A stretch of 64,000 nt of DNA from Candidatus Latescibacterota bacterium (GTDB lineage: Bacteria > Latescibacterota > UBA2968 > GCA-2709665). The notes beneath the pieces were generated by a model. It saw only the letters and a program-made list of their open reading frames with translations. It had not been told where the DNA came from and did not search any database. The translations under genes were made by a program, and so were the position numbers. Numbering within the stretch: the stretch's first letter is position 1; every line of letters starts with the position of its first letter. Positions 49,738-64,000 of this stretch are shown here, in pieces. The stretch is taken from assembly GCA_965219455.1 (NCBI GenBank), contig OZ244744.1, positions 4,832,001-4,896,000 on the forward strand, written 5' to 3'.

Positions 49738-50757
49738 ATGACACGGCGTCCGTTGCTGGGGATCACGATGGGAGATGTCTGCGGCATCGGTCCGGAGGTG
49801 ATCGCAAAGGCGTTGAGTCATCCGGAGGTATACGCGTTCTGCCGGCCGCTCGTGGTCGGCGACGTGGATGCCCTTGTCGCCAACCTGGCGCATTCGAAGC
49901 GTCGGATCGAGGTTCGAAGGGTCGACGCGCCAGAACAGGGTCGATACCGCTTCGGACAGATTGATCTGTGGGCACCAGTCGACGTGGATCATGCGCAGGT
50001 CGAGACAGGCCGGGTCTGTCCCGAAGCGGGCCGGGCGGCCGTGGAATGGGTGGTTCGGGCGGTGGATCTGGCGGTGGCGGGGCGGATCGATGCAATCGCG
50101 ACGGCGCCGCTGAATAAGGAGGCGATGAACCGGGCCGGATTCCGGTATGCGGGTCATACGGAACTGCTCGCGGAGCGCCTGGGCGTTTCGGATGTCCGTT
50201 TGATGCTGGCGTCCGAACGCTTGAACGTGGCCCATGTCACGGGACACGTGGCGCTGGCTAAGGTGCCGGAATGGTTGACGGAAGCGCGCGTTCTCGGCAC
50301 GATCAGACTGCTCCACGGCGCTCTGACAAACATGGGCCGGCCGCGTCCCCGCATTGCCGTGTGCGGGTTGAATCCGCACGCGGGAGAGGCGGGTATCCTG
50401 GGCGGAGAAGACATGGAATTGATTCACCCGGCAGTTCATACGGCGAATGCCGAGGGAATGCGGGTTGCCGGGCCGTTGCCCGCGGATACGGTTTTTCTGA
50501 AGGCGTACAACGGGGAGTTTGATGGCGTGGTGGCGATGTACCACGACCAGGGCCACGCGCCCGTCAAGCTGGTGGCGTTCCACGATGCGGTAAACGTGAC
50601 GTTGGGCCTGCCCATCGTCCGGGTGTCCGTGGACCACGGTACGGCGTTCGATATCGCGGGCAAGGGCGTGGCGGACGAGAACAACATGCTCGAAACGCTA
50701 CGCCTGGGGACGCGCCTGGCCGAAAGAAAGGAATTGAGACCGGTTGACGATGAGTAA
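49738..50757 (+). CDS. pdxA: 4-hydroxythreonine-4-phosphate dehydrogenase family (PdxA/PdxA2)
   Basis: TMGD..GIGPE, GHTE, LNPHAGE, PADTVF, MYHDQG, SVDHGTAFDIAG. Confidence 0.9.
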   Translation: MTRRPLLGITMGDVCGIGPEVIAKALSHPEVYAFCRPLVVGDVDALVANLAHSKRRIEVRRVDAPEQGRYRFGQIDLWAPVDVDHAQVETGRVCPEAGRAAVEWVVRAVDLAVAGRIDAIATAPLNKEAMNRAGFRYAGHTELLAERLGVSDVRLMLASERLNVAHVTGHVALAKVPEWLTEARVLGTIRLLHGALTNMGRPRPRIAVCGLNPHAGEAGILGGEDMELIHPAVHTANAEGMRVAGPLPADTVFLKAYNGEFDGVVAMYHDQGHAPVKLVAFHDAVNVTLGLPIVRVSVDHGTAFDIAGKGVADENNMLETLRLGTRLAERKELRPVDDE

Positions 50758-50783
50758 GACTCTGGCCCCGCGCCTTTGCGATT

Positions 50784-51161
50784 TCAGTCCATACCCGCGA
50801 TGAAATCCATGGTCACGAGATGGTCGCCGATGTCAGTAAACACCGGTGAACGCGCCGGTGGGTTTTCCGGGAAGAATGCGGCATAGGCGTCGTTGAAGTC
50901 CGCGAATAGCGATCGGTTGTTGAGGAAGACGGTGACCTTGAGGACGTTTTCCAGCGAGGTTCCCGCGTCTTCAAGAATGCCGGATACATTGGTGAGGATG
51001 CGGCGGGTCTGCGCCCTGACGTCGCCGGATTCCGGGTTCCCCGTTTCCGGATCCACCGGCGGCTGGGCGGAGATGAACATAAGGTCGCCGTATACAATGG
51101 CCTGTGAGTAGGGAAATTTGGGGATGTTTCCTCTCGGGCTGGTGAATGGTCTTTTTTTCAT
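50784..51161 (-). CDS. RidA/YjgF/UK114 family protein
   Basis: PYSQA, VLKVTVFL, FN..Y..FF...PARS. Confidence 0.85.
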   Translation of the reverse strand: MKKRPFTSPRGNIPKFPYSQAIVYGDLMFISAQPPVDPETGNPESGDVRAQTRRILTNVSGILEDAGTSLENVLKVTVFLNNRSLFADFNDAYAAFFPENPPARSPVFTDIGDHLVTMDFIAGMD

Positions 51162-51256
51162 GGCGTGTCCTTTCCGGTAAACATGCACTTTGTGGTCTCT
51201 GAGTGCCGTAATATACACCCCGCGTCTGCTTGCAAAACACATATCCCGTCAGGTAG

Positions 51257-52451
51257 ATGACCGATATGAAAACATCTGAATTTTCCGCGTACGAGCATAT
51301 CCTGGACAATCGGCACCACAGCGTGGCCGATTTTCTGCGAGTTCACCTGTCCGACGCCGACGTGTATCGTCTGGTTTCGGCGTATTTTACGATCTACGGT
51401 TACGAGGCTTTGGAATCCGAACTGCGGGGCGTAAAGGATGTCCGCTTTCTTTTCGGCGATCCTGCGTCCGTGGGCGAATTGGACCCGGGAGAGAAAGAGC
51501 CGAAATCCTTCGACCTGACAGAAGACGGACTCTCGCCGCATCACGTTCTGCAGCAAAAACACCTGGCGCGGAGGTGCGAGGAATGGGTGCGGAGAAGACG
51601 TGTGAGTATTCGGTCCATTGGCAAGTCCAACTTTCTTCACGGCAAAATGCATCTCTCTGAATCTTCCAATGGAGGAGCAGCGGTGGTAGGAAGTTCCAAC
51701 TTTACCAAGAGGGGACTTGGTTGCGATCAGGGGGCAAACGTCGAAATCAACCTCTCAACCGCTGATCCGGCAATTCGTAATGAATTGCGTACCTGGTTCG
51801 ACGATCTCTGGACAGACAAGGAACTCACCCGAAATGTAAAAAGGGAGGTCCTCGCCGCTCCCTCTGTGCCTATATTAATGAGGCAGGGTTCCCCGTAAAT
51901 TAGTGAGCAATTGAGAGGGCAAAGGAGCGTGAGGCCGCTTGAAGAACCCCTTTCCAACGGCAGACGAAGTCTGCTTGATATATTGGTCGATGAGAAAACG
52001 GCTCCCCCTGACACCGACCTCTTGCGCGAATCTGCGCTGAAACAGATATACGAAGCGCTTGAGCTCCTCACACCTCGTGAGTCGCATGTCATCAGACTCT
52101 ATTTTGGCCTCAATGGCAATGACGGCCTGACGCTTGAAGAAATCAGCCACATGATGAAGCTCACGCGCGAGCGGATTCGCCAAATCAAAGAGAAGGCACT
52201 CAAAAAGCTACGCCGTCGGGCGCGTTACGAGGAGCAAGAGTTAGTAACCAAATGGCCTATTACGTCAAGGTATCGAACGCCGTGACAGCCCACGTGGGCG
52301 GTGTGAAAAAGAAACGCATATTCGGGAACTACGGATTCACGGCGGGCGAAATACGAGGCTGCCCGTGAAATCCGTACAACCGGACCGAACTGATTTTGAG
52401 TTGGTAACGTCGCTTGTTATCTTTGAACGTGTAAGCTTAAAACATGCTTAA
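51257..52451 (+). pseudogene. Remnant of PLD-SNF2 helicase: N-terminal PLD domain (51257-~51860) and extreme C-terminus (~52360-52451), middle missing
   Basis: VSAYFTIY, LHGKMHL..GSSNFT..GL (HKD-like); after the sigma fragment, DFELVTSLVIF, which I recall as typical of this family's C-terminus. Confidence 0.7.
51911..52285 (+). pseudogene. Fragment of RpoD/RpoS-type sigma factor (regions 3.2-4)
   Basis: LEEP..SLLDILVDE, LTPRE..VIRLYFGL, TLEEI..LTRERIRQIKEKALKKLR; no regions 1-2. Confidence 0.8.
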
Positions 52452-52469
52452 TTGGACGGAACAGTCAAA

Positions 52470-53690
52470 ATGGCAAGTCTGACACAAGCGGATCTAACAC
52501 GTATCGTCGAAGCCCGCGAGTCTGATCGCGTCGAGTTCAAGGAAACACTGTCTGGTGATGCGACTACCAGGATCAGGGAAGCTATCTGCGCTTTTGCAAA
52601 TGACTTGCCGGATTACGATACTCCGGGCCTTGTTCTTGTGGGCGTGAAAGACGATGGGACGATTTGCGATTTCAGTGTAGCGGATCGGGTGCTCCAGACG
52701 TTGGCTGATATGAAAACCGACGGGAATATCGTCCCTCCGCCCTCGATGACGGTGGAAAAGCGTACGCTGCAGGGAAGAGAATTGGCGTTGATTACCGTGC
52801 AGCCATCCAATTCGCCGCCGGTTCGATACAAAGGAGCCATCCACATCCGAACGGGTGCCCGCCGTGGGACAGCCACGGCACAAGATGAAAGGATCCTCAA
52901 CGAAAGACGTCAGTACGGAGATCGCCCATTCGACATTCATCCGGTTTCTTTCGCTGCCCTGAGCGATCTCAACCTTTCCCAGTTCGAGCATGAATACTTG
53001 CCACAGGCCTTTGATCGCGATGTTCTGGTAGCCAACGAACGCACGCTCGAAGAACGGTTGGCCGCGACAAAGATGATTGCCTCCGCTGCTGATCCCGTTC
53101 CTACTGTGCTAGGCCTACTCGTACTCGGCAAACGGACGCTGGATCACCTGCCGGGAGCGTACATTCAGTTCTTGAGATTTGCCGGCAATGAAGTAACGGA
53201 CGACATAACCGATGAAGAGGCAATCAGCGGAACCGTTATGGACGTGCTGCGGCGCCTCGACGAGAAGCTGAACGGACACAACCGGACATCGGTTGACGTT
53301 ACATCGGGATCAAGAGAGAGGCGAGTCAGTACGTATCCTATCGCAGCGATCCAGCAGATCGCTCGCAATGCAGTCATGCACCGATCGTACGAGGGGAACT
53401 ACACTCCAACGCGAGTTTACTGGTACGACGACCGCATAGAAATACTAAGTCCCGGGGGAGTCTTCGGCTCAGTAACAATAGAAAACTTCGGTCGATCTGG
53501 CATAACGTCGTACCGGAATCCCAATCTCGCGGAGGCGATGAGAAACTTGGGATTCGTGCAACGATACGGCATAGGCATTCCATTGGCCAATCGGCTGCTT
53601 CGACAGGCCGGGCATCCGGAAATGGAATTCAACGTTGATATGAACAACGTTCAAGTCATAATACCTTCTCGCAAGGACGACCTGACATGA
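52470..53690 (+). CDS. Schlafen/AlbA_2 domain + RecG-C-like (HATPase_c_4) protein
   Basis: ESDRVEFKE, ICAFAN, GVKDDG, NAVMHRSY, DRIEILSPG, YRNP.LA. Confidence 0.88.
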   Translation: MASLTQADLTRIVEARESDRVEFKETLSGDATTRIREAICAFANDLPDYDTPGLVLVGVKDDGTICDFSVADRVLQTLADMKTDGNIVPPPSMTVEKRTLQGRELALITVQPSNSPPVRYKGAIHIRTGARRGTATAQDERILNERRQYGDRPFDIHPVSFAALSDLNLSQFEHEYLPQAFDRDVLVANERTLEERLAATKMIASAADPVPTVLGLLVLGKRTLDHLPGAYIQFLRFAGNEVTDDITDEEAISGTVMDVLRRLDEKLNGHNRTSVDVTSGSRERRVSTYPIAAIQQIARNAVMHRSYEGNYTPTRVYWYDDRIEILSPGGVFGSVTIENFGRSGITSYRNPNLAEAMRNLGFVQRYGIGIPLANRLLRQAGHPEMEFNVDMNNVQVIIPSRKDDLT

Positions 53691-54703
53691 CCGTTCCCGT
53701 TTTGACCTTTTTCAACAATAAGAGCGGTGTTGGCAAGACATCCCTGGTCTATCATCTGGCGTGGATGTTGTCCGACGTCGGTTATCGGGTGTTGGCCTGC
53801 GACCTCGACCCCCAGGCGAATCTAACCGCCGCATTTCTAAATGAAGAACAGTTGGAAGACCTGTGGCACGAAAACAACGACGCCTCCAACCGGACCATCC
53901 TGCAGTGCGTCTGGCCGCTGACAAAAGTCGGAGACATCAATGACCCGGGGCTTGCGGAAATTACACCTGCGTTAAGCCTGATACCGGGAGACTTGGCACT
54001 GGCGGGATTCGAAGACACGCTGTCGACGGAATGGCCTAACGCATTGGGTTCCGGCGAACTCTACCGTTCATTTCGTATTCTGACTTCTTTCTCAACCGTG
54101 ATGCAGCGTGGTGCAATGCAGATGAACGCCTCGGTCATTCTTGCAGACGTTGGCCCCAATCTTGGCGCGATTAATCGCTCGGCGTTGATTGCAACCGATC
54201 ACATCATCGTTCCCCTGGGCACCGACCTGTTTTCCCTCCAGGGCCTGCGCAACCTCGGTCCTACGTTGAATCGGTGGCGGGAAGACTGGAAGCGGCGACG
54301 GGACAACTGGAAGCAGCCGGAATTTCAACTGCCGGACGGGGAGATGCGCCCCGTCGGGTACGTGGTGCAGCAGCACGGCGTACGCCTGAGCCGCCCCGTC
54401 AAAGCATATGACAAGTGGGTCAATAGAATGCCGGCAGAGTACGCCCGGAACCTGTGTGACGATAACGAAGGACCGTACCCGCCCACACCTGCACAAGATA
54501 CGGAACACGCCCTTGCCACCGTCAAACACTACCGGAGTCTGGTGCCAATGGCTCAGGAAGTTCGCAAACCCATTTTTCATCTAACGACGGCTGACGGAGC
54601 GATTGGCGGCCACGCCGCCGCTGCAAATGACGCGCGCCGGGACTTCAGGGAACTGGCGATGAAGATCGTACAGCGAATCAATCTCGGGGATCGGTTCCAA
54701 TAG
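53687..54703 (+). CDS. ParA/MinD-like ATPase
   Basis: FNNKSGVGKT, DLDPQANLT, DVGPNLGAINR; ATGA overlap with the upstream gene. Confidence 0.88.
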   Translation: MTVPVLTFFNNKSGVGKTSLVYHLAWMLSDVGYRVLACDLDPQANLTAAFLNEEQLEDLWHENNDASNRTILQCVWPLTKVGDINDPGLAEITPALSLIPGDLALAGFEDTLSTEWPNALGSGELYRSFRILTSFSTVMQRGAMQMNASVILADVGPNLGAINRSALIATDHIIVPLGTDLFSLQGLRNLGPTLNRWREDWKRRRDNWKQPEFQLPDGEMRPVGYVVQQHGVRLSRPVKAYDKWVNRMPAEYARNLCDDNEGPYPPTPAQDTEHALATVKHYRSLVPMAQEVRKPIFHLTTADGAIGGHAAAANDARRDFRELAMKIVQRINLGDRFQ

Positions 54704-54808
54704 GTAGTCAAATTGTGTCCATAGGGGCATCTTGTAGCGTCCAACCGGAATCTCCGTTCGGGGCGACCCTACAGAGGGGACGGATGCCATTGGCAAGGAG
54801 AAAAATAT

Positions 54809-56497
54809 ATGAATATCAATGCGAGTATTATCGATCAGAGGATAGCGGGTATCGTTGAAGATCACCTCGAATGGCTGCCGGAAGGGAACGACATCAACAA
54901 AATGAAGTCGGCGGCATTTGTACTCCTGTGCATGTCAACGTGCCTTGAAATAACGCTTGCAGACAGTGCCGAATTGCTTACCGAGGGCGGGAACGATGCC
55001 GGCGTTGATGGGCTTCACGTTGGCGAGGTTGAAGACGGTGATTTTCTCGTCACGATTTTCCAAGGCAAGTACAAAGTCAAGGATCTAGGCGGCAAAGCAA
55101 ACTTCCCGGAAAACGATGTGCAAAAAGCTATAGGTACCGTTAGGGTGCTGTTTGATCCCAATAGGAGCGTCGCGCTAAACAAAAAAATAGCCCCTAAAAT
55201 TGAGGAGATTCGCTCGTTGATCCGCGATGCGTATATCCCCAATGTTCGGGTAATCCTTTGCAATAATGGAGAGCGGTGGACATCGCAAGCAGATCATTGG
55301 GTAACTGGCGCAGAAGAGGATTACGGCGACAAAGTAAAGTTCCTCCACTTCAATCACGATTCCATAGTCAGCATCTTGCAGCGCAGCAAACAGGTGGATA
55401 CCACCCTGACTCTGAGTGGGCAAGCTATTGTAGAAGATATGAACTATATGCGCGTTTTGGTTGGGCGCGTTTCCGTTCAGGAGATCCAACGACTGTTTAA
55501 CGAGCACGGAGACAGCCTGCTCGAGCGCAATATCCGCCGCTACCTTGGGCTGCACACCAATCGCGTCAACACTGCAATTCACGAGACGCTTTGCGCTTCA
55601 GACAAATCTGACAAATTCTATTTCTACAACAATGGCATTACCGCAGTCTGCGACCGATTTGATTACAACGCCTTTCAGCAATCAGACTATCAGGTGCAAC
55701 TCAAGAATATGCAGGTGATCAACGGGGGTCAGACCTGCAAGACGATTCAAGAAACGCTAAATGGCAGTTTGCCCAACCTATTCGGCGAATCAGCTTATCT
55801 GTTAATCCGCGTTTACCAGTTGGGCGATACAAATAAAGAGTTTGTCCAAGATATCACCTACGCCACTAACAGTCAGAATCCAGTGGACCTCAGGGATTTG
55901 CGATCCAACGATGAGATGCAGAAGCAATTGGAGTTGGGCCTGTCTGGTCTGGGCTATACGTATAAACGCCAGCGAGAGGAGGGCGGGGGTGAGTCAGCGG
56001 TCATTACCAGTTCGACTGTGGCAGAAGCCGTGCTGGCAATCTGGCAAGAAAGGCCGCACCAAGCCAGATTCCGTCGCAAAGAGCATTTTGGCAAACTGTA
56101 CGAGGATATTTTTAAGCCGCTCAACGCAGCGCAGGCACTGCTTGCGGTCTTGATTTTCAGAGCTGTGGAGAACGAAAGAAAACGCCCGACAACGGCAACG
56201 CCACCGGACTTTCTGCCCTATTCGTCCCACTACATCGCCATGTTGATCGGCCGCAAGCTGCTAAAAGATGAGGGGCTTACCCTCGACCGAGTTTCCCATC
56301 GAAACGTTCAGAGACTCCGACAGGTGCTTGAAGGCGAGCGAGATCAATACTATGCGGATGCCGTCCAAGCACTGAAAAATGCGTTAAAGGCTTGCTATGG
56401 CGACCGGGTTGTTTCACTCCAGCAGTTGTCGGCGACCTTCAGGCGCGGCGACCTATTGGAGATGCTCGACGACAGCGAGAAAATGGAGCAGGCATGA
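54809..56497 (+). CDS. AIPR (abortive infection phage resistance) family protein
   Basis: GGNDAGVDG..FQGKY N-terminus; ERNIRRYLG, FYFYNNGIT, QVINGGQT, ATNSQN. Confidence 0.9.
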   Translation: MNINASIIDQRIAGIVEDHLEWLPEGNDINKMKSAAFVLLCMSTCLEITLADSAELLTEGGNDAGVDGLHVGEVEDGDFLVTIFQGKYKVKDLGGKANFPENDVQKAIGTVRVLFDPNRSVALNKKIAPKIEEIRSLIRDAYIPNVRVILCNNGERWTSQADHWVTGAEEDYGDKVKFLHFNHDSIVSILQRSKQVDTTLTLSGQAIVEDMNYMRVLVGRVSVQEIQRLFNEHGDSLLERNIRRYLGLHTNRVNTAIHETLCASDKSDKFYFYNNGITAVCDRFDYNAFQQSDYQVQLKNMQVINGGQTCKTIQETLNGSLPNLFGESAYLLIRVYQLGDTNKEFVQDITYATNSQNPVDLRDLRSNDEMQKQLELGLSGLGYTYKRQREEGGGESAVITSSTVAEAVLAIWQERPHQARFRRKEHFGKLYEDIFKPLNAAQALLAVLIFRAVENERKRPTTATPPDFLPYSSHYIAMLIGRKLLKDEGLTLDRVSHRNVQRLRQVLEGERDQYYADAVQALKNALKACYGDRVVSLQQLSATFRRGDLLEMLDDSEKMEQA

Positions 56498-58583
56498 GAG
56501 AGGAAATCCAAGCCGCCTTGGTTGGGATTCCAAGCAATGACTTTAAGGCGGCAGTGCAGGACCTGCTGGCGGTCCTTGGCTACCGCGGCGAGCGGACGTT
56601 ACCCGGTCAGACGGGCGCCGTGGCCGATTTTATCGCGCAGTTTCCCGCTGCGAAAGAACGTACGAGGACGGAGCAGGCATTCTGCGAGTTGGTTCGGTCC
56701 ATGCGGCTCGTTTTTCAGGTGACAAGCGACGAGATTGCCGCCAGCACTCAACCCATGATAGCATTTGATCCCGCTTCCTTTGACAAAGCACATCAGCAAA
56801 GCTTTATTTTCTTCGCAGTCGAACTCAAGGAAGCGACCTGCACTCGAGGACAGTACGCACGATTCACCCGCGAGATCAACAAGCGCTTGAATCAACCCTC
56901 CGTTGTTCTCTTCCGCACCACATCCAATCTGCTGACTCTTGCCTTTGTTCACCGACGTGAGCACAAGCTGGATCGGAAACGTGATGTACTGGGCAAAGTG
57001 TCGCTGATACGCGAGGTTGACCCGGAGAATCCCCACCGCGCCCATTTGGACATATTGGCTGAACTGTCGCTGGCCGAGTGCGCTAGATGGATGGATCTCC
57101 ACAGCAAGCCGCATAATTTTGACGGCCTGCTGGCCGCCTGGTTAGACAAACTGGACACCGAGGAACTCAACCGACGGTTCTACGGCGAACTCTTCGACTG
57201 GTTCGAGTGGGCGGTGGAGGATGCGAAATTCCCGTCGACCGTGCCTGCGGAGCAACAGGTAATCCGTTTGATAACTCGAATCCTTTTTGTCTGGTTCATC
57301 AAGGAAAAGGGATTGGTCAGGGAGGAATGGTTCGTACAAGCCGAAATGGAACAGTTGCTGAGCAGTTTCGGTGGCTCCGACTACTACCGCGCAGTCTTGC
57401 AGATGCCCGTACCGGGGATATTTACCTGCTTTTCTACGAAAAAGGTTGTCAACTGCTGAAACCTACCCAGGGTTTGTTGGCCTATATCACCTCCAACAGT
57501 TGGTTGAAGGCCAAATACGGCAAGGCCCTTCGCCGGTACTTCTCGGAGCGACACACGCCCCTTCGCCTGCTGGAGATGGGTAAGGATGTATTCAAGAATG
57601 CAATTGTCGATACAAACATCCTGATATTACGCACCGGAAAATGCAATGAAACCGGCAAGGCGGTGGATATGGACCGTCTGGCGGATGAAGACTTCCCACC
57701 ACCCGAGGATCTTTGGGGGACGTTTCGACCGCGGGTTGAAAAGCCTTGGAGCTCGCTTTCGGCCAGTGAACAGCCCATTTTGGACAAGATGGAAGCAACC
57801 GGGATACAGTTAATAGAATGGGATGTCGAAATAAATCGCGGGACCGTAACGGGTTACAATAAAGCCTTCATCATTGACGATGCGACCCGACAGGCGTTGA
57901 TTGGCGCACATCCAAATTCAGCAGAAATCATCAGGCCGGTGCTGCGCGGGCGTGACATCCAGCGGTATCAGGCACGGTGGGCGAACTTATGGTTAGTATA
58001 CATCCGAAAAGGTACAGAAATTAAACGCTATCCGGCGATTTATGGCCACCTGCAAAGATATATGGTCGGGCTCTCAGAGAAAGCGGGAGCGAACAAATGG
58101 TATGAATTACAGGCGAGGTGTCTCATTCCTATTGACATGTTCCGGAGTCCGAGCGAAATGCTTGACGCGCGTTTTAGACAGGAGAAATTAGTCTGGATGG
58201 ACCTGACGGATCAAGGATGATTCGCATTTGACGGAGACGGAATGTTCTGCACCAACACAGTGTATATGTTGACCGGCCACTCGGTCAAATACCTATGTGC
58301 AGTACTCAACTCGAATCTGATAACTTGGTTTATGCGGAATACCGCGCTTACTTCAGGAATGGGCGTAACCAGATGGTTTAGTATTTTTGTCGAAACCATC
58401 CCTATACCTAAAATCACCCCTGTAATGCAGCGTCCGTTCGTCCTCATGGTGGAATGCATCCTTGCCGCCAAAGCGGCTGATCCAGCGGGGGACACCAGCG
58501 AGCAGGAAGCGGAGCTTGATCGGCTGGTCTATACGCTGTACGGACTGACGGCGGAGGAGGTTGCGGCAGTGGAAACTGTCTGA
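56494..58583 (+). pseudogene. Type IIG (Eco57I-like) restriction-modification fusion, internally deleted at ~57402 and with nonsense TGA at 58218-58220
   Basis: RLITRILFVWFIKEKG..YYRAVLQ joined out of frame to ARTGDIYLLFYEKG..YITSNSW; no DPxxGSG or NPPY; TaqI_C-like LRGRDIQRY; tail EAELDRLVYTLYGLT.EE. Confidence 0.85.
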
Positions 58584-59102
58584 ACCGCAGATGAGGCGGA
58601 TTATAAGGACTATACAGATTAAATCCTCATCATCCGAAGATCCGTTACACGCGCAGCGCAACGCCAGTAATCCTGGTCCTGATAATTGCGTGGAGGGAGT
58701 ACCCGATCGGAAACGGTATGTAATTAGACGGCAAATCGTCCAAGATATTGGCCGATTTTGGGAGGATCGCCTCTCGGGAGAAAGCCAGAAGCCCTTCAGG
58801 CGATGGCTCGAAGCAAAGTAGCCGGCGGTCCTGGACGAGCCTGCGTAGGTACATGGATGTGGCTAATGGATGCGTAACAATTTTGCTCTGGATCTGGCAT
58901 ATACAGGCGATTTGCATACGCACAGCAATGATAATAAAAAAATGAAAGACCGTTCTATCGCAATTAACCGATATTCTCCTACGTTGCGCCGACTGGAATT
59001 TACCTATTGCCAGCACTGCGGGTCGACGATTCAGTAAGAATAAAAAAGCCCGGCTTGATTGAGGGGTTAATAGATCAACCGAGCTTGAAAGGACTTCTCA
59101 CC

Positions 59103-60125
59103 ATGTCCAAGTCAGAATTACCTGCTGAAGATTCGGGAATTGACACTGCTGAATCGGGGCTTAACACAGCCATTGCGGCAATCACGGGAGTACCTATTCC
59201 TGGACCAGTTAGGCAGAACGCCTGGAAAGCATTTGGGCGTCTCTGTTCAGCAGCTATAGAGGTGCCATCAGCTTATTTTGATGGTGTCGCTGCTGAAAAA
59301 AGAGCCATAGCGGAAGCACGGGTAAAACTTATTGAATCGAATGCAACACAGATAGCCCGCCAGATAAAAGTAGATGAAGAATATGCGCGGGTTGCAGTTC
59401 GAAGGTATGGACAGAAGATCATCCGTGAACAGGTGAATCTCGATCTAATCAGTGAGGAAGCTGCACGCCAGCTAAACGACACTAACGACGCTCAGACAAG
59501 CGGAGAGGTTGGACAAATAGACGACGATTGGCTTAATCATTTTGAAAAGGAAGCGAGTCAGCGAAGCACCGAAGAAATGCAGCAGCTATTTGGAAGAATT
59601 CTCGCAGGAGAGATTCGTCACCCCTCGTCCTTTTCCATTAGAGCTGTGAAGATTATGGGTGAAATAGATACAGTAGCCGCCAACCTGTTCAAGAAACTTT
59701 GTTCGATCTGCATTGTGTCGAGGATCCCGGGGAGGAACCAGGTACTCGAGGCTCGCGTGCTATCTCTTTCTGGGAATGCGGGAAACAATGCACTTCAGAA
59801 ATACGGATTAGACTTCGATCAACTCAATATCTTGCATGAGTATGGGTTGATCATTTCGGACTACAATTCATGGAGGGACTACGGGTCATCCGTTGCAAGT
59901 AAGGATAATGTAGTCTTACTTGGATTTTCATATCAGAATACTTATTGGGGCTTGTTATCAGAGGGAGATCGAAAGGAAGGGCAAGAACTAAAACTACATG
60001 GTGTCGGTTTATCCAAAGCGGGACGAGAGTTACTCAACATAGTAGAGACAGAACCGATTGAGAATTACACCAATGATCTCGCAAATTTCTTTGCCAAAAA
60101 AAAGCTGAAGATGATACCAATATAA
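59103..60125 (+). CDS. DUF2806-like protein
   Basis: REQVNL, IDDDWLNHF..A..STEEMQ.LFGRILAGEI..PSSFS. Confidence 0.78.
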   Translation: MSKSELPAEDSGIDTAESGLNTAIAAITGVPIPGPVRQNAWKAFGRLCSAAIEVPSAYFDGVAAEKRAIAEARVKLIESNATQIARQIKVDEEYARVAVRRYGQKIIREQVNLDLISEEAARQLNDTNDAQTSGEVGQIDDDWLNHFEKEASQRSTEEMQQLFGRILAGEIRHPSSFSIRAVKIMGEIDTVAANLFKKLCSICIVSRIPGRNQVLEARVLSLSGNAGNNALQKYGLDFDQLNILHEYGLIISDYNSWRDYGSSVASKDNVVLLGFSYQNTYWGLLSEGDRKEGQELKLHGVGLSKAGRELLNIVETEPIENYTNDLANFFAKKKLKMIPI

Positions 60126-60135
60126 AGAAAAAGTC

Positions 60136-60249
60136 ATGAAAAGCGGTGAGCAAGAAGCGGAGATAGATCAACGTGTCTATGCGCGGTACGGCCTGATGGA
60201 GGAAGAGATTGTCATCTTGGAGAAATCTATCTGTCTGAAGGGAGATTAA
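60136..60249 (+). repeat. Second, diverged copy of the type IIG R-M C-terminal tail
   Basis: EQEAEIDQRVYARYGLMEEEI vs EQEAELDRLVYTLYGLTAEEV at 58500-58583. Confidence 0.8.
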
Positions 60250-60489
60250 CCTTCGGCCGAACTCAGGTCAAAGCCTCATTGATTACGTAGCCAAATTTCA
60301 AAATATATTGAAGGGATGTTTAAAAAATGCGGAGCCTCCCATTCTTGAAGTAAATGGAATCTGTCCACTCCGATAGTGTTCCGCGGGATAAGGTATTCGC
60401 AATGCTTCCAGCACCTGTTCATCCGCTTGGGTCACTGCGTCGTCCAAGAACGTAAGCGGGAAATCAATGGGCGACCCGAACAGGCCCCG

Positions 60490-60687
60490 CATTTTTACAA
60501 TCTTGTCGCCAATCAAGTTGTGGTTGAGCTAAAAGCGGTCATTGAGCTGGCGGATGTTCACATTGCACAGGCGAGAAACTATGTGGTGGCGTACGATTTT
60601 GATTACGGTCTATTGATCAACTTCGCGGCAGAATTCCTGGAAAACAAACGGCTGTACAACAAGAAGCCAAATCCTGTCAATCCATAA
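60490..60687 (+). pseudogene. GxxExxY (PD-(D/E)XK-like) protein, C-terminal fragment
   Basis: VVVELKAV..L.DVH.AQ..NY...GLLINF...KR; N-terminal GxxExxY motif absent. Confidence 0.75.
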
Positions 60688-60712
60688 ATCCAGTAAATCC
60701 TGATCCTGACAA
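60670..60712 (+). repeat. ATCC-periodic repeat after GxxExxY fragment
   Basis: AATCCTGTCAATCCATAAATCCAGTAAATCCTGATCCTGACAA. Confidence 0.65.
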
Positions 60713-60764
60713 TTTCCACCCAACGCCAGGTTGGAACCACGCCCACACACGGAGGAGTCGTAAC

Positions 60765-61997
60765 TTGAAAATCAGACCTGACCTCGTACCCTCGGCCGAG
60801 GAGGACAACCTGGAGGTCATCCAGCTTACGGATGAGTCGATTCCCTCGTCACACATCTACATGGAAGCGCAGATTTTCACGCCCGACTCACAGCGGCTGG
60901 TGCTCCATCGTTCCGCGCACCCCCATGGCTCCGATCCCAGGGACCCGGAACACAGGTATCTGATCTGCGACCTGGAAGATCGCTGCCGTCTGACGCCAAT
61001 TACGACCGAACCGGGAACGACCGCGCCCTCCATCTCACCCGACGGCGACTGGCTCTACTACTTCGTCGATGAGACCGACCCCGCGCGGCCCGGGCCGCTC
61101 ACGCTCAAACGGGTGAGTCCGGACGGGTCGGATTGCGAGGTGATCTATGTCCTGGATCACGCCATCCCGGGCACGGATTTCCGGATCAGCCGTCCGTATC
61201 CGCTCTCGACCATTTCATCCGACGGCAGGCGGATTGCCATTTCAGGATTCCTGGGCGACGGCCAAACCGAAGGCGCGCCGTGGGGCCTGCTCGTCTTCGA
61301 GATCGACGAGCCATCCGTACGGTTGGTCTTTCACGGCCCGACCTGGTGCAATATCCACCCGCAGTACACGCGGCAGACCGGGCCGGACGCCTCCCACGAC
61401 ATCATGATTCAGGAGAACCACGGAAACGTCGCGTCCCCCGACGGCAGGCTGGAGAAACTCGTGAGCGGACGCGGCGCCGATATCCACCTCATCCGGGACG
61501 ATGGAACCTGTCTCCGTGACTTTCCGTGGGGCCGGGACGGGAACGAATTCTGTCAGGGACACCAATGCTGGCAGGGACGGTCCGATATTGCGATCACGAG
61601 TACGTCGACACGCGAACCGAACGAGAGACAACTCATTTCCGGCCGCGCCGCGGCGCACGCCGGTCACCACGGCAGCCGGACTCCCGACGGATGGCGAAAC
61701 GACCTGTCCCGTTCGTTCAACGGACCGGATTTCTGTCATTTCGCCACGGACGTCGCCGGACGCCGTCTGATTACGGATGCCGGCCCCAGGGACGGGGGCG
61801 GCGCGGTATGGCTGTTCGATCTGCCCGGCGAGGCGCACGGCGCGTTATCGAGTGCAAGGAAGGTCGCGAGCCCCGGGTCGTCCTGGCGAAAGCATACCCA
61901 CATCCACCCGTTTCTGGCGCCGGACGGACTTTCCGGCTTCTTCAATTCCGACGAAAGCGGCGTACTCCAGGCGTACATGGTGCGCGGCTGGTCCTGA
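60765..61997 (+). CDS. Beta-propeller protein, oligogalacturonate lyase/TolB-like
   Basis: HIYME..FTPD, SPDG, HPQY, GHQCW, HTHIHPFLAPDG..FNSD; RBS GGAGGAG with TTG start. Confidence 0.7.
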   Translation: MKIRPDLVPSAEEDNLEVIQLTDESIPSSHIYMEAQIFTPDSQRLVLHRSAHPHGSDPRDPEHRYLICDLEDRCRLTPITTEPGTTAPSISPDGDWLYYFVDETDPARPGPLTLKRVSPDGSDCEVIYVLDHAIPGTDFRISRPYPLSTISSDGRRIAISGFLGDGQTEGAPWGLLVFEIDEPSVRLVFHGPTWCNIHPQYTRQTGPDASHDIMIQENHGNVASPDGRLEKLVSGRGADIHLIRDDGTCLRDFPWGRDGNEFCQGHQCWQGRSDIAITSTSTREPNERQLISGRAAAHAGHHGSRTPDGWRNDLSRSFNGPDFCHFATDVAGRRLITDAGPRDGGGAVWLFDLPGEAHGALSSARKVASPGSSWRKHTHIHPFLAPDGLSGFFNSDESGVLQAYMVRGWS

Positions 61998-62034
61998 GCA
62001 CGTCTGAAATACCGCCGGTCCTTGAGTGTTTCCA

Positions 62035-63066
62035 ATGAAAGCCGTATTGCTGAAAGAGCCAGAGCGACTCGAGGTCATCGAACTACCCGACGAATCGCCG
62101 GGGCCCGGTGAGGTGTCTCTTCGAATCGAAGCCTGTTCAATCTGCGGGTCCGATCTGGAAGGCTTTCACGGACGGCACCCCAAAATGTCGTTTCCACGGG
62201 TCATGGGCCACGAGGTCGCCAGCGTCGTTCACGAGGTGGGCGAGGACGTTCTCTCTGTCAAGGTTGGGGACCGCGTCGCGGGGACCGGGCAGAAGGCCTG
62301 CCGAAACTGCGATCGGTGCCGATCGAGCCAGCCTTTCAGATGCATCCGTCCGGGTGGACCCGGATTCACGGCGCACGGTGCGTACGCGGAACGCATGGTC
62401 GTTGTTCCAGGTCGGCTGACGCCAATTCCTGACGGCATCACCTTCGAAGAAGCGGCGGTAGCGCAGCCGGTCGCCGTCGCCAATCACGCGGTGGCGGGTC
62501 GGGCCGGAGTGAAAGCAGGGGAGACGGTCCTCGTCCAGGGCTGTGGCCCAATTGGGCTGGCCTCGATGCTGCTGTCGAAGCTGAAGGGTGCGCGCGTGAT
62601 CTCCACGGATATCGTCGACTACCGGGTCCGGCGGGCGCGGGAACTCGGCGCGGACCTGGCGCTGAACGTCCACAGGGAGGCATTGCTGCCTCCAACCCTC
62701 GACCTGACCGGCGGCCGCGGCGTAGACAAGGTCATCGAGTGTGTCGGGGGCGACCAGGACGAAACGTTGCCCCAGGCGGTGGAAGCCGTCAAGCCAGGTG
62801 GGCTGGTGACCGTGGTGGGGTCATTCGTGAACAACAGGGCGACGCTTCCCGTGATCGATTTCAAGTTCAGCGAGAAGTCGGTGATCGGGTCGCAGGGCAT
62901 GCCGGAGGGATACGGTCCGGTCTTTGAACAGATGGCCGAGGGTCGACTGGACGTAAAGGCCCTGATCACCCACCGGATGTCACTTGAAGGTGCGCCCCGT
63001 GCGCTTGATCTGATGGACCGGAAAGCGGAAGAGGTGATGAAAGTAGTACTCTTCCCAAACGGATGA
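62035..63066 (+). CDS. Zinc-dependent alcohol dehydrogenase (sorbitol/threonine DH-like)
   Basis: ICGSD, GHE, CRNCDRC..C, GCGPIG. Confidence 0.9.
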   Translation: MKAVLLKEPERLEVIELPDESPGPGEVSLRIEACSICGSDLEGFHGRHPKMSFPRVMGHEVASVVHEVGEDVLSVKVGDRVAGTGQKACRNCDRCRSSQPFRCIRPGGPGFTAHGAYAERMVVVPGRLTPIPDGITFEEAAVAQPVAVANHAVAGRAGVKAGETVLVQGCGPIGLASMLLSKLKGARVISTDIVDYRVRRARELGADLALNVHREALLPPTLDLTGGRGVDKVIECVGGDQDETLPQAVEAVKPGGLVTVVGSFVNNRATLPVIDFKFSEKSVIGSQGMPEGYGPVFEQMAEGRLDVKALITHRMSLEGAPRALDLMDRKAEEVMKVVLFPNG

Positions 63067-63199
63067 TCCGATTGCGCAGGTACTGAATCCGGGGCAGCGT
63101 TGGCTTCTCGCTGGTGCCAAAGCGTCGTGAAGAAGGCTGCCGGAGCGGCGAACCTCGACCGCTGAGGCGCTCGCTCTCAATTCACAAAGGAGATTCACC

Positions 63200-63556
63200 A
63201 TGGCCTTGGAGGTTTATCAGTATACAAAATGCGGCACCTGTCGCAAGGCGATCAGATTCCTGGACGATCTGGGCATCGAATACAACGCTCGAGAAATTAC
63301 GGAAACCCCGCCCTCGGAGCCGGAATTGCGGGCCATGCTCAACCACTACAATGGCGATATCAGGAAGCTCTTCAACACTTCGGGTCAGTTGTATCGCAAA
63401 TTGAAAATGAAGGATCGCCTGGACACACTGACAACCGAGGAAGCCGTAGGCCTCCTGTCGCAAAACGGGATGTTGGTCAAGCGGCCCTTTCTGCTGACGC
63501 AGGATGCCGGCCTCGTTGGATTCAGGGAAGACGCCTGGCGCCGCGTTTTGGCGTAA
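63200..63556 (+). CDS. ArsC/Spx family protein
   Basis: CGTCRKA, FNTSG..YR, LVKRP. Confidence 0.88.
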   Translation: MALEVYQYTKCGTCRKAIRFLDDLGIEYNAREITETPPSEPELRAMLNHYNGDIRKLFNTSGQLYRKLKMKDRLDTLTTEEAVGLLSQNGMLVKRPFLLTQDAGLVGFREDAWRRVLA

Positions 63557-63629
63557 AGCGTAACCGCGGCGGAGCGTCGTCGGTTGGCAACGGGTATGGC
63601 TTCTTCAAAGGTGATAACGGGAGGGCAAG

Positions 63630-64000
63630 ATGAAGAAAGCGTTGATGGTATATGGCGGCTGGCAGGGTCACGAACCCGGACAGTGCGTGGAAATTTTCGC
63701 GCCGATCCTGGCCGATGAGGGCTTCGACGTGACGCTGTCGGACACGATGGACGTGTATCTCGATGCCGATCGGATGGCCGAATTGAGTCTTGTCGTACCG
63801 GTCTGGACGATGGGCACAATTGAACGGGAACAGGCGATGGGGCTGCTGTCAGCCGTCAGGAGTGGCGTGGGGATAGCCGGGTGGCATGGCGGAATGGCGG
63901 ATGCATTCCGGGAACATACGGAATATCAATTTATGGTTGGCGGCCAGTGGGTGGCGCATCCCGGCGGCGTTATCGACTACGAGGTGAACGTCGCGGATCA
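63630..64000 (+). CDS. ThuA-like (trehalose utilisation) domain protein, partial
   Basis: Manual translation [43 protein letters not shown]; runs off window end. Confidence 0.82.

Follow-up and report, generated by a model that had tools for sequence, protein, structure and literature searches.

A repeated type IIG restriction-modification gene tail beside a DUF2806 gene in a decaying defence island of a Latescibacterota bacterium

In a genome of a Candidatus Latescibacterota bacterium, a type IIG restriction-modification (R-M) gene's 3' end recurs in the same orientation behind an unrelated DUF2806 gene, which raises the question of how the second copy came to lie there. The stretch analysed, here called the window, comprises 64,000 nucleotides (nt) of contig OZ244744.1 (assembly GCA_965219455.1, positions 4,832,001 to 4,896,000); coordinates refer to it unless another locus is given, and relatives' genomes and loci carry G and L numbers. 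An earlier note, made from the sequence alone, had proposed that the gene tail acts as a recombination handle and that an incoming cassette, made up of a new specificity end plus cargo, displaces the old tail downstream, giving integrase-free, integron-like stacking of defence genes. Our results partly support that proposal, which had the right kind of process, namely the gathering of cargo at conserved R-M gene ends. The account towards which we lean, by a modest balance of the evidence, is that the second tail is a fossil scar, that the DUF2806 gene lies inside a tail, that a crossover followed, and that the island then decayed.

The repeated tail and the DUF2806 unit

A repeat search of 56000-62000 showed a direct repeat of 64 nt with 78% identity (50/64) and a spacing of 1648 nt, at 58500-58563 (tail 1) and 60148-60211 (tail 2), the second-longest direct repeat family in this interval being only 23 nt. 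The binomial tail for 50/64 matches is approximately 1e-18 per comparison and approximately 2e-11 when all position pairs in 6 kb are allowed for, and the repeat that had been reported is thus real, in one orientation and the only outstanding one in 56000-62000. Tail 1 (plus strand) is the conserved C-terminal module of the IIG gene, whose reading frame terminates with it (stop 58581-58583). Tail 2 is an orphan 37-codon remnant of such a module, in an open reading frame (ORF) at 60136..60249 (plus strand) that begins 11 nt past the DUF2806 stop. When the whole 5.84-Mb genome was searched at the protein level, the two tails matched each other (E ~2e-4, 52% over 27 aa) and no other convincing copy was found; a whole-genome scan for TaqI_C, the specificity domain of the IIG gene, found one further place only.

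Two weak tail matches, at 5.329 Mb and 5.331 Mb (E values of 0.017-0.06, one of them interrupted by a stop), were treated as chance. They lie outside the window within a repeated element (genome positions 5326000-5334500), two copies of which stand 2.2 kb apart, each with a weak tail-like stretch on the minus strand. The plus-strand ORF of this element has, by eye, the look of what we take to be an Rpn/YhgA-type nuclease-transposase.

An assembly chimera, one of the outcomes that the earlier note had named as contrary to its proposal, is unlikely, since contigs from two other public runs span both tails and the DUF2806 gene unbroken: record 22 of X5 is continuous over 57560-60307 with 0 differences, and record 30 of X6 over 57648-60370 with 1 difference (one of these runs may be the source sample). 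Contigs from X1 contain parts of the region only, at 90-95% likeness, and look like those of a relative. Rfam gave nothing above threshold on 50000-64000, with a single chance-level match (E 0.023), and no tRNA was found in the window.

Related loci were collected by a DNA search of 41 related genomes, which gave matches in 25; 19 stretches were fetched, and 117 ORFs from nine loci were compared with Pfam. The comparison showed that the window IIG gene, called an R-M gene in the earlier note, is a dead pseudogene. Its N-terminal piece (56494..57403, plus strand) corresponds to residues 15-314 of the G011 protein, which is intact and 1258 aa long, and ends at a deletion junction (57403/57404); its C-terminal piece (57404..58583, plus strand), which by Pfam and PADLOC contains the end of the Eco57I domain, the TaqI_C specificity domain and the tail, matches residues 861-1256 of the same protein by tblastn (57405-58577). 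Residues 315-860, i.e. approximately 546 codons of the methylase core, have no counterpart in the window, and G011 carries an extra 1637 bp between the stretches that match the two pieces. The junction is spanned by contigs from three runs. In addition, a CGA-to-TGA nonsense mutation gives an in-frame stop at 58218-58220, where 8/8 aligned relatives encode Arg. Together with the frame change at the junction, it leaves the gene in three pieces, whereas the relatives' ORFs are intact (1184-1260 aa). Only positions 107-171 of 171 of the Eco57I profile remain (Pfam), PADLOC model positions ~260 to 747 are absent, and the gene lacks the N6-adenine methyltransferase core with its S-adenosylmethionine-binding and catalytic motifs. 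The specificity domain is kept (PF12950, 57.1 bits in the whole-genome scan) with one TGA inside, and the PADLOC model REase_MTase_IIG matches the pieces with E values of 6.5e-53 and 3.4e-20.

Within the dead specificity region, a stretch of 30-45 nt (58103-58146) resembles many scattered sites in relatives at 84-94% (five in G001, four in G005, two in G013, and also in G009, G006 and G020) and has no second copy in its own genome. It may be a small repeated element acquired by the pseudogene.

The DNA between the two tails is of three kinds. The 'small degenerate ORF' counted among the intervening genes in the earlier note is present, in 58584..58846 (plus strand), but this segment is the native 3' flank of the IIG gene and not cargo: it is 70% identical to the DNA past the IIG stop in G013, and its first 35 nt also match G010. 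It is followed by a spacer (58847..59064, no strand assigned), to which neither the fetched loci nor the rest of the genome has a homologue, and then by the DUF2806 unit of approximately 1.1 kb (59065..60135, plus strand), a single-gene candidate defence cassette. The ORF extends over 59085-60125, with the probable ATG at 59103 (gene 59103-60125), and its product matches PF10987 with an E value of 1.3e-26 and 94.2 bits (cut-off 24.5) over profile positions 5-220 of 221. The G+C content is 0.453, as compared with 0.531 in the IIG pieces and 0.641 in the flank at 61000-63000, so the AT-richer DUF2806-like gene described between the copies is confirmed. The score against TIGR03899 was 78 bits, under the equivalog cut-off of 155.65, and no PADLOC model matched the protein. 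A DUF2806 anti-phage system named 'Belisama' is described, in the accessible text of 10.1101/2024.07.02.601686, as a defence cassette in Vibrio chromosomal integrons.

The DUF2806 unit is common to G033 (83% nt identity) and G006 (78%). In G033, which belongs to another family of the same order, homology to the window begins at 59065 and extends past the DUF2806 gene into a decayed tail, and the DNA directly upstream of the unit is the initial portion of a tail, to which the end of a TPR-domain gene is joined without a gap. G089, from the genus of G033, has the same TPR gene end followed by a single uninterrupted orphan tail. Nucleotides 5378-5005 of L049 (G089) align to 8974-8603 of L029 (G033) and 4995-4928 to 7477-7410, so that a separation of 10 nt in G089 corresponds to 1126 nt in G033, with the DUF2806 gene in between. 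The DNA profile of the tail matched positions 73-116 on the left side in G033 (E 0.49) and 98-165 on the right side (E 1e-4), an overlap of at least 19 nt from the profile coordinates and approximately 45 nt by eye. The junction between DUF2806 and the right-hand tail is common to G000 and G033, and probably to G006. To judge from these alignments, the DUF2806 unit sits within an IIG-type tail, with part of the tail apparently on both sides in G033. The unit in the G033/G089 comparison is the cargo gene alone, without the new specificity end that the incoming cassette was supposed to bring. Nor can tail 1 and tail 2 be taken as products of one event, as 260 nt of native flank and 220 nt of unrelated DNA precede the DUF2806 unit at 59065.

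The similarity of the two tails is itself unexceptional. Among 25 tails (300 pairs), the 64-nt core had a mean identity of 0.62 (sd 0.12), and the value of 0.78 for tail 1 and tail 2 was reached by 11.7% of the pairs. Two G015 tails match tail 2 with an identity of 0.84, and tails of other genomes match it with 78% and 77%. A recent local duplication of tail 1 is ruled out, tail 2 being closer to another genome's tails (84% vs 78%); the two resemble each other because all members of the IIG family end in the same module, not because of local copying. Tail 2 is the orphaned C-terminal module of another IIG allele and a non-functional scar. The second copy thus belongs to a separate truncated gene copy, an outcome that the earlier note had set beforehand as speaking against it.

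The DNA past tail 2 points to its former surroundings. By blastn, 60218-60329 matches the second of two stacked orphan tails in G101 together with the spacer to the start codon of a TIR gene (L040 6192-6082, 77%), and 60326-60371 matches the 3' end of that 402-aa TIR gene (L040 4929-4884, 89%); TIR proteins matched the window remnant by tblastn (E 2e-6). Tail 2 and the second G101 orphan also align with the same unusual C-terminal ending. The segment 60250..60376 (plus strand) is a spacer (to ~60329) joined to the last ~15 codons of the TIR gene (60326-60376), with approximately 1.15 kb of TIR sequence deleted. Since both parts align to their G101 equivalents, the window once held orphan tail, spacer and TIR gene, and the alignments show that a TIR defence gene was originally the next gene downstream of tail 2. 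The order in G101 is IIG, M11A, M11B, orphan, orphan, TIR; in G141 the IIG gene is directly followed by PDC-M11A/B, and in G134 directly by the same TIR gene with no orphan, which is presumably the older state.

The DUF2806 junction is shared by tail 2 and the right-hand copy of G033, and in both a codon of the tail's conserved GLT motif is changed from Thr to Met. Past this codon, tail 2 continues like the G101 tail and the G033 copy like the G089 tail. Tail 2 therefore looks like a chimera, for which a single crossover inside the tail, in one lineage, would be the simplest account. The tail half linked to DUF2806 would have been joined to the TIR-linked half by such a later crossover, and DNA with another IIG 3' end (tail 1 and its own flank) would have come to lie upstream. 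Decay of the island would have come last, with deletion of the IIG methylase core, the nonsense mutation, deletion of the TIR gene, and fragmentation of helicase and sigma factor genes.

The conserved tail is a recurrent junction in the phylum

A 58-position profile of the C-terminal module was compared with 168 genomes of the phylum and gave 78 matches in 48 genomes. Thirty-one lie in open frames of at least 700 aa and belong to intact genes. Another 16 lie in frames of 150-600 aa and are for the most part silent cassettes that converge on an IIG gene (such pairs occur in 11 genomes), and 31 lie in frames of less than 150 aa. Inspection of 25 of these short-frame matches showed 18 true orphans and seven broken ends of long or internally deleted genes; the other six comprise four at contig ends and those of G063 and G067. 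The true orphans are found in G015 (three), G101, G055 and G057 (two each), and G000, G001, G009, G040, G059, G089, G102, G124 and G125 (one each).

Two control profiles of equal length behaved differently. A block of the methylase core gave 189 matches, and 0 of the 150 listed were in a frame of less than 150 aa (shortest listed 452 aa); an N-terminal block had 1 of 66 matches in a short frame. The mean column identity was 96% for the methylase block, 87% for the N-terminal block and 58% for the tail. Because these more conserved controls gave almost no short-frame matches, the excess of orphans is specific to the 3' end, and the enrichment of orphan tails for which the earlier note called is borne out.

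In seven genomes, at least two tails on the same strand lie within 3 kb of each other with defence genes between them. In G055 the tails, with a repeat identity of 94.6% over 74 nt, enclose a RhuM gene; those of G057 (85% over 82 nt) enclose a 142-aa ORF in addition to RhuM. In G059, a methylase gene's tail and an orphan (92.5% over 106 nt) flank a 505-aa gene and a 5' remnant of RhuM, and in G101, PDC-M11A/B is followed by two stacked orphans that are 88-90% identical to the active tail. PADLOC assigned most of the cargo between tails to known or candidate defence genes (PDC-S05, PDC-M11A/B, PD-T4-4/PDC-M47, PDC-S66 and Dsr1). The conserved tail is thus shown to be a recurrent junction in the phylum. 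Comparison of the genes between tails, also suggested in the earlier note, and of those after IIG genes revealed different cargo in related islands, with tails flanking defence genes in these seven genomes. No empty site for the G059 and RhuM cases was found among the 168 genomes, and the DNA profile detected no decayed tails between the recombinase and TIR genes of G011 and G006.

At two loci, the whole IIG gene is lost and a tail is left 16-52 nt past a ParA-like gene (G015 L022:7856-9082 and G124 L050:5450-5545). The next genes are a PDDEXK_3 gene with a PD-T4-4-like pair in G015 and Dsr1 in G124.

Probable specificity inversion in relatives and possible origins of the orphans

Within the genus, a PD40-repeat gene forms the right-hand border of a defence island that is hypervariable. 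The slot behind the IIG gene contains a convergent partial TaqI_C cassette and a tyrosine recombinase in G011 and G009, a recombinase and a TIR gene in G006, and a GNAT protein with a small partner in G002 and G001, named PDC-M11A/B from the G101 copy. Other modules found there are a pair of PD-T4-4-like ATPases, Fic, and a 1271-aa protein that belongs to no family. Judged by cassette match and gene position, the layout of cassette and recombinase recurs at the order level in G029, G040, G025 and G028. The recombinase between IIG gene and cargo was identified by Pfam in G011, G009 and G006, and genes of 330-357 aa occupy its place in the four other genomes, among which the Pfam scan covered G029.

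The cassette active in G011 corresponds to that silent in G009 (87.5% over 802 nt), and the one active in G009 to that silent in G011 (87.9% over 767 nt); the two active genes are alike solely over 303 nt before the specificity domain. This exchange is what an inversion switch predicts. At 6/6 loci, active and silent copies have their longest exact match, of 17-27 nt and partly palindromic, at the start of the TaqI_C domain; long perfect inverted repeats were not found, the arms being 71-80% complementary. The recombinases are Xer-like, with 55-64 bits on the XerA/integron-integrase model (cut-off 220) and scores under every curated cut-off. In the window, an inverted partial specificity copy and an adjacent recombinase are absent, and none of the 12 ORFs scanned, from 52452 to 61994, matched Phage_integrase. 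Since the corresponding slot in relatives contains an Xer-like tyrosine recombinase, tied there to a silent specificity cassette in inverted orientation, the 'integrase-free' character claimed for the process is unproven.

In G009 (L027:11320-11730), neither the active nor the silent tail is in the reading frame of its specificity domain (frames of 72 and 91 aa), owing either to assembly indels or to a switched-off state. Three IIG paralogues in G026 and G034 (L032, L037 and L038) lack the usual tail and end in a different 58-aa C-terminus, which is nearly identical among the three. TPR repeats are fused to TaqI_C, followed by an SMC_N/AAA_15 ATPase, in G125 (L051:4708-7401, with an additional TIR domain) and G015 (L022:12408-13922), a case of an R-M enzyme's DNA-recognition domain recruited into a non-methylase protein.

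As for the process at the tails, we infer that tails exchange over the short homology that they share, or that breaks are repaired with duplication; RecA-type exchange between short homologies, double-strand break repair and a recombinase acting at the tails are all possible, and a Campbell-type crossover would yield the same picture as target duplication in the G033/G089 pair. The tail as a recombination handle is supported as far as the G033/G089 junctions lie in a tail and tail 2 looks chimeric. Several observations weigh against a fossil scar with DUF2806 inside a tail and a later crossover. The region 58847-59084 in the window has no significant left-hand tail copy (best local alignment with tails z <=1.6), and a 10-nt match to the tail core at 59070-59079, considered as such a copy, gave no significant local alignments; because the window lacks a detectable left-hand copy, the tail duplication is seen in G033 alone, where the left profile match by itself is not significant (E 0.49) and the right copy is badly decayed, with indels. 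The filled and empty sites give no direction, and G089, whose junction shows a gap of 7 nt, could have arisen by excision. More distant DUF2806 genes (<=63% aa identity) had no tail beside them at the DNA or protein level in any of 18 loci, which implies that the link between DUF2806 and the tail arose once. The apparent chimerism depends on a small number of diagnostic positions, and the sequence concerned is short and conserved. The genomes of the survey are related and several orphans represent one ancient case, so that independent events are few: the orphans of G101, G015 and G000 share ancestry, the G101 and G015 pairs having even the inter-orphan junction in common, and the three RhuM cases are one lineage, because G059 holds the RhuM 5' remnant. 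Finally, the orphan 5' ends vary on the profile (nt 17, 26, 50, 72-73 and 81-86), and therefore no single fixed site is favoured.

Some of these points would suit a plainer history, in which the orphans are relics of random illegitimate recombination and deletion, and 3' ends survive as the most conserved and detectable part and because they contain or adjoin the start signals of the next gene. The window is rich in fragments (helicase, sigma, IIG, TIR and PDDEXK_3), orphan 5' ends differ in position, many cases are of common ancestry, and orphans lie tightly upstream of the next gene, with a PD-T4-4-like ATPase 8-9 nt past the orphan in G015 and G006 and TIR or Dsr1 after others. However, the controls are more conserved than the tail (96% and 87% vs 58%) and should have been as detectable, yet they gave 0 of 150 listed and 1/66; direct repeats of 92-95% surround single genes in G055 and G059, and both G033/G089 junctions are inside the tail. 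We therefore regard random relics as rather unlikely. A more ambitious scheme is also unlikely, though somewhat more so: the C-terminal module of approximately 55 aa would be a portable landing pad, and tail-bearing defence cassettes would recombine with any IIG tail, duplicate part of it, stack one way and hop between islands and genera through host recombination or Xer-like help. The 'integron-like' stacking of the earlier note stands as a hypothesis. That an Xer-like tyrosine recombinase itself captures and stacks cassettes at an att-like site in the tail, besides inverting the silent specificity cassette, the window having lost its recombinase, is quite improbable. A recombinase gene does occupy the slot in relatives (G011, G009 and G006 by Pfam), it is immediately followed by an orphan tail in G009, and DUF2806 cargo and tail travel together in three genomes; the tail core has an 18-nt near-palindrome, and the rare Ile codon ATA occurs there in 24/35 tails as compared with 12.7% genome-wide. 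Against this, the recombinase is tied only to inversion elsewhere, at the TaqI_C start (6/6 loci), most orphan loci have no recombinase, the four f2 loci with a recombinase gene lack a direct orphan, and the repeat pairs share no identical core sequence. In the palindrome, 81.7% of cells are paired (29-42% with slid partners), but shuffles reach 80.5%, 45/500 are as high, and there is no covariation in support of a structured site; column composition alone explains the pairing. A present function of the orphan module, as a small protein or as an RNA or DNA hairpin by which transcription into the following defence gene is stopped or controlled, is very improbable. The G101 and G015 orphans are open and 87-90% identical to the active tail with differences that are mostly synonymous by eye, and the core can form a 7-bp hairpin; nevertheless, the G033 and G006 copies are decayed with indels, the downstream TIR gene is gone in the window, and neither covariation nor an Rfam match was found. 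We give hardly any credence to tail 2 as a leftover of a silent specificity cassette of the relatives' inversion system. Eleven relatives keep a promoterless cassette of TaqI_C and tail beside the IIG gene, and the window has lost cassette and recombinase, but silent cassettes are convergent with the IIG gene whereas tail 2 points the same way as it does, the nearby DUF2806 stop (22 nt from tail 2) leaves no room for specificity-domain DNA, and the locus of the G101 orthologue is without any silent cassette.

Comparison with known systems and the borders of the island

Integrons have an IntI integrase, an attI site and attC hairpins. The arrangement at the tails resembles them in that single promoter-proximal defence genes, each with a short conserved sequence after it, form a stack of uniform orientation downstream of a fixed gene; it differs in that there is no IntI integrase and no attI, the repeat is the coding sequence of the anchor gene and not an attC hairpin, there is no evidence of excision circles, and a locus has one to three units. 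Tandem accretion at gene 3' ends is known from SCC elements at rlmH and islands at tRNA genes, which use dedicated recombinases and short identical cores; there too, the insert carries or recreates the gene 3' end, and displaced copies in direct orientation separate stacked elements. Defence genes are also embedded in R-M loci, such as PrrC and the restriction-linked ORFs of type I loci, a likeness that lies in unrelated defence genes nested beside or inside R-M operons; we know of no description of these cases as flanked by duplicated R-M gene ends.

Insertion with long target duplication at R-M loci, and allelic diversity of type IIG specificity domains, are described in the accessible text of PMC2853133. 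Judged by that text, the likeness is that the G033 unit appears to lie between direct repeats tens of bases long, which would correspond to a single copy at the empty G089 site, and contains no transposase or integrase. The differences are that the R-M system is the insert there, whereas here the R-M gene end is the target and another defence gene the insert, and that the duplication is clear in one relative only, the window having no left copy. Programmed inversions that switch Type II R-M specificity domains, including Eco57I-domain and Cj0031 homologues by a PLD+SNF2 helicase, are the subject of PMC9881135, whose accessible part lists RhuM among the neighbours enriched at inversion loci. 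As far as that part describes them, our relatives' loci have the same components (IIG gene, convergent partial TaqI_C cassette, tyrosine recombinase and neighbouring PLD+SNF2 helicase). The window differs in that no inversion parts are left, and the inversion occurs at the start of the specificity domain and not at the tail, the inverted repeats being 68-80% identical outside the core of 17-27 nt. The window is a variant of known rearrangement modes at R-M loci, in an ordinary decaying defence island.

Taken alone, the window carries a modest message, its R-M gene being dead and its repeat a fossil. The tails bear on the open question of how genes are gained and lost in defence islands without obvious mobile-element machinery. 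If the tail is a preferred recombination target, this would explain the gathering of defence genes downstream of type IIG genes (DUF2806, RhuM, PDC-M11, PD-T4-4-like, TIR and Dsr1) and would provide a sequence signature for finding new defence cargo. If the landing-pad scheme were true, it would amount to integron-like capture with the coding sequence of a restriction enzyme as the attachment site.

The island is a low-GC stretch of approximately 51000-60800, as compared with a G+C content of 0.62-0.66 at the PD40-repeat gene. Its left edge (51281..52430, plus strand) consists of scrambled helicase and sigma factor fragments, located by tblastn with the relatives' intact proteins and named from PADLOC and NCBIfam: the N-terminal 193 aa of an HKD(PLD)+SNF2 helicase (51281-51859, plus strand), the last ~97 aa of an MzaA-like sigma-70 protein (51935-52225, plus strand), and the last 44 aa of the helicase (52299-52430). 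Three intact genes follow on the plus strand, assigned by Pfam and PADLOC: an AlbA_2/HATPase_c_4 gene (52452-53690) and a ParA-like ATPase gene (53687-54703), both 96-98% identical to G011 at the aa level, and an AIPR/AbiU-like gene (54809-56497). A sigma-70 protein of 540-550 aa is encoded upstream of the IIG gene in G010 (L024:302-1939) and also in G002, G009, G025 and G040. It is MzaA-like (207 bits, NCBIfam; PADLOC MzaA, E 4.7e-37), and over its first ~260 aa it shares approximately 50% identity with the IIG enzyme's own N-terminal domain. A sigma factor with a domain in common with a neighbouring restriction enzyme is unusual.

At the right-hand side, the PD40-repeat gene (60765..61997, plus strand; 92% aa identity to G011) forms the island border in the genus, and the same 410-aa gene is at the island edge in G011, G002, G009, G001 and G006. 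Just before it lies an N-terminally truncated PD-(D/E)XK (PDDEXK_3) remnant (60376..60687, plus strand; profile positions 27-110 of 117, Pfam), which blastn found at the same island edge in G011, G015 and G009. The sequence after this remnant (60671-60711) is AATCCTG-rich and 83-90% identical to many sites in the relatives' genomes; it looks like a short dispersed repeat tied to PDDEXK_3-type nuclease genes.

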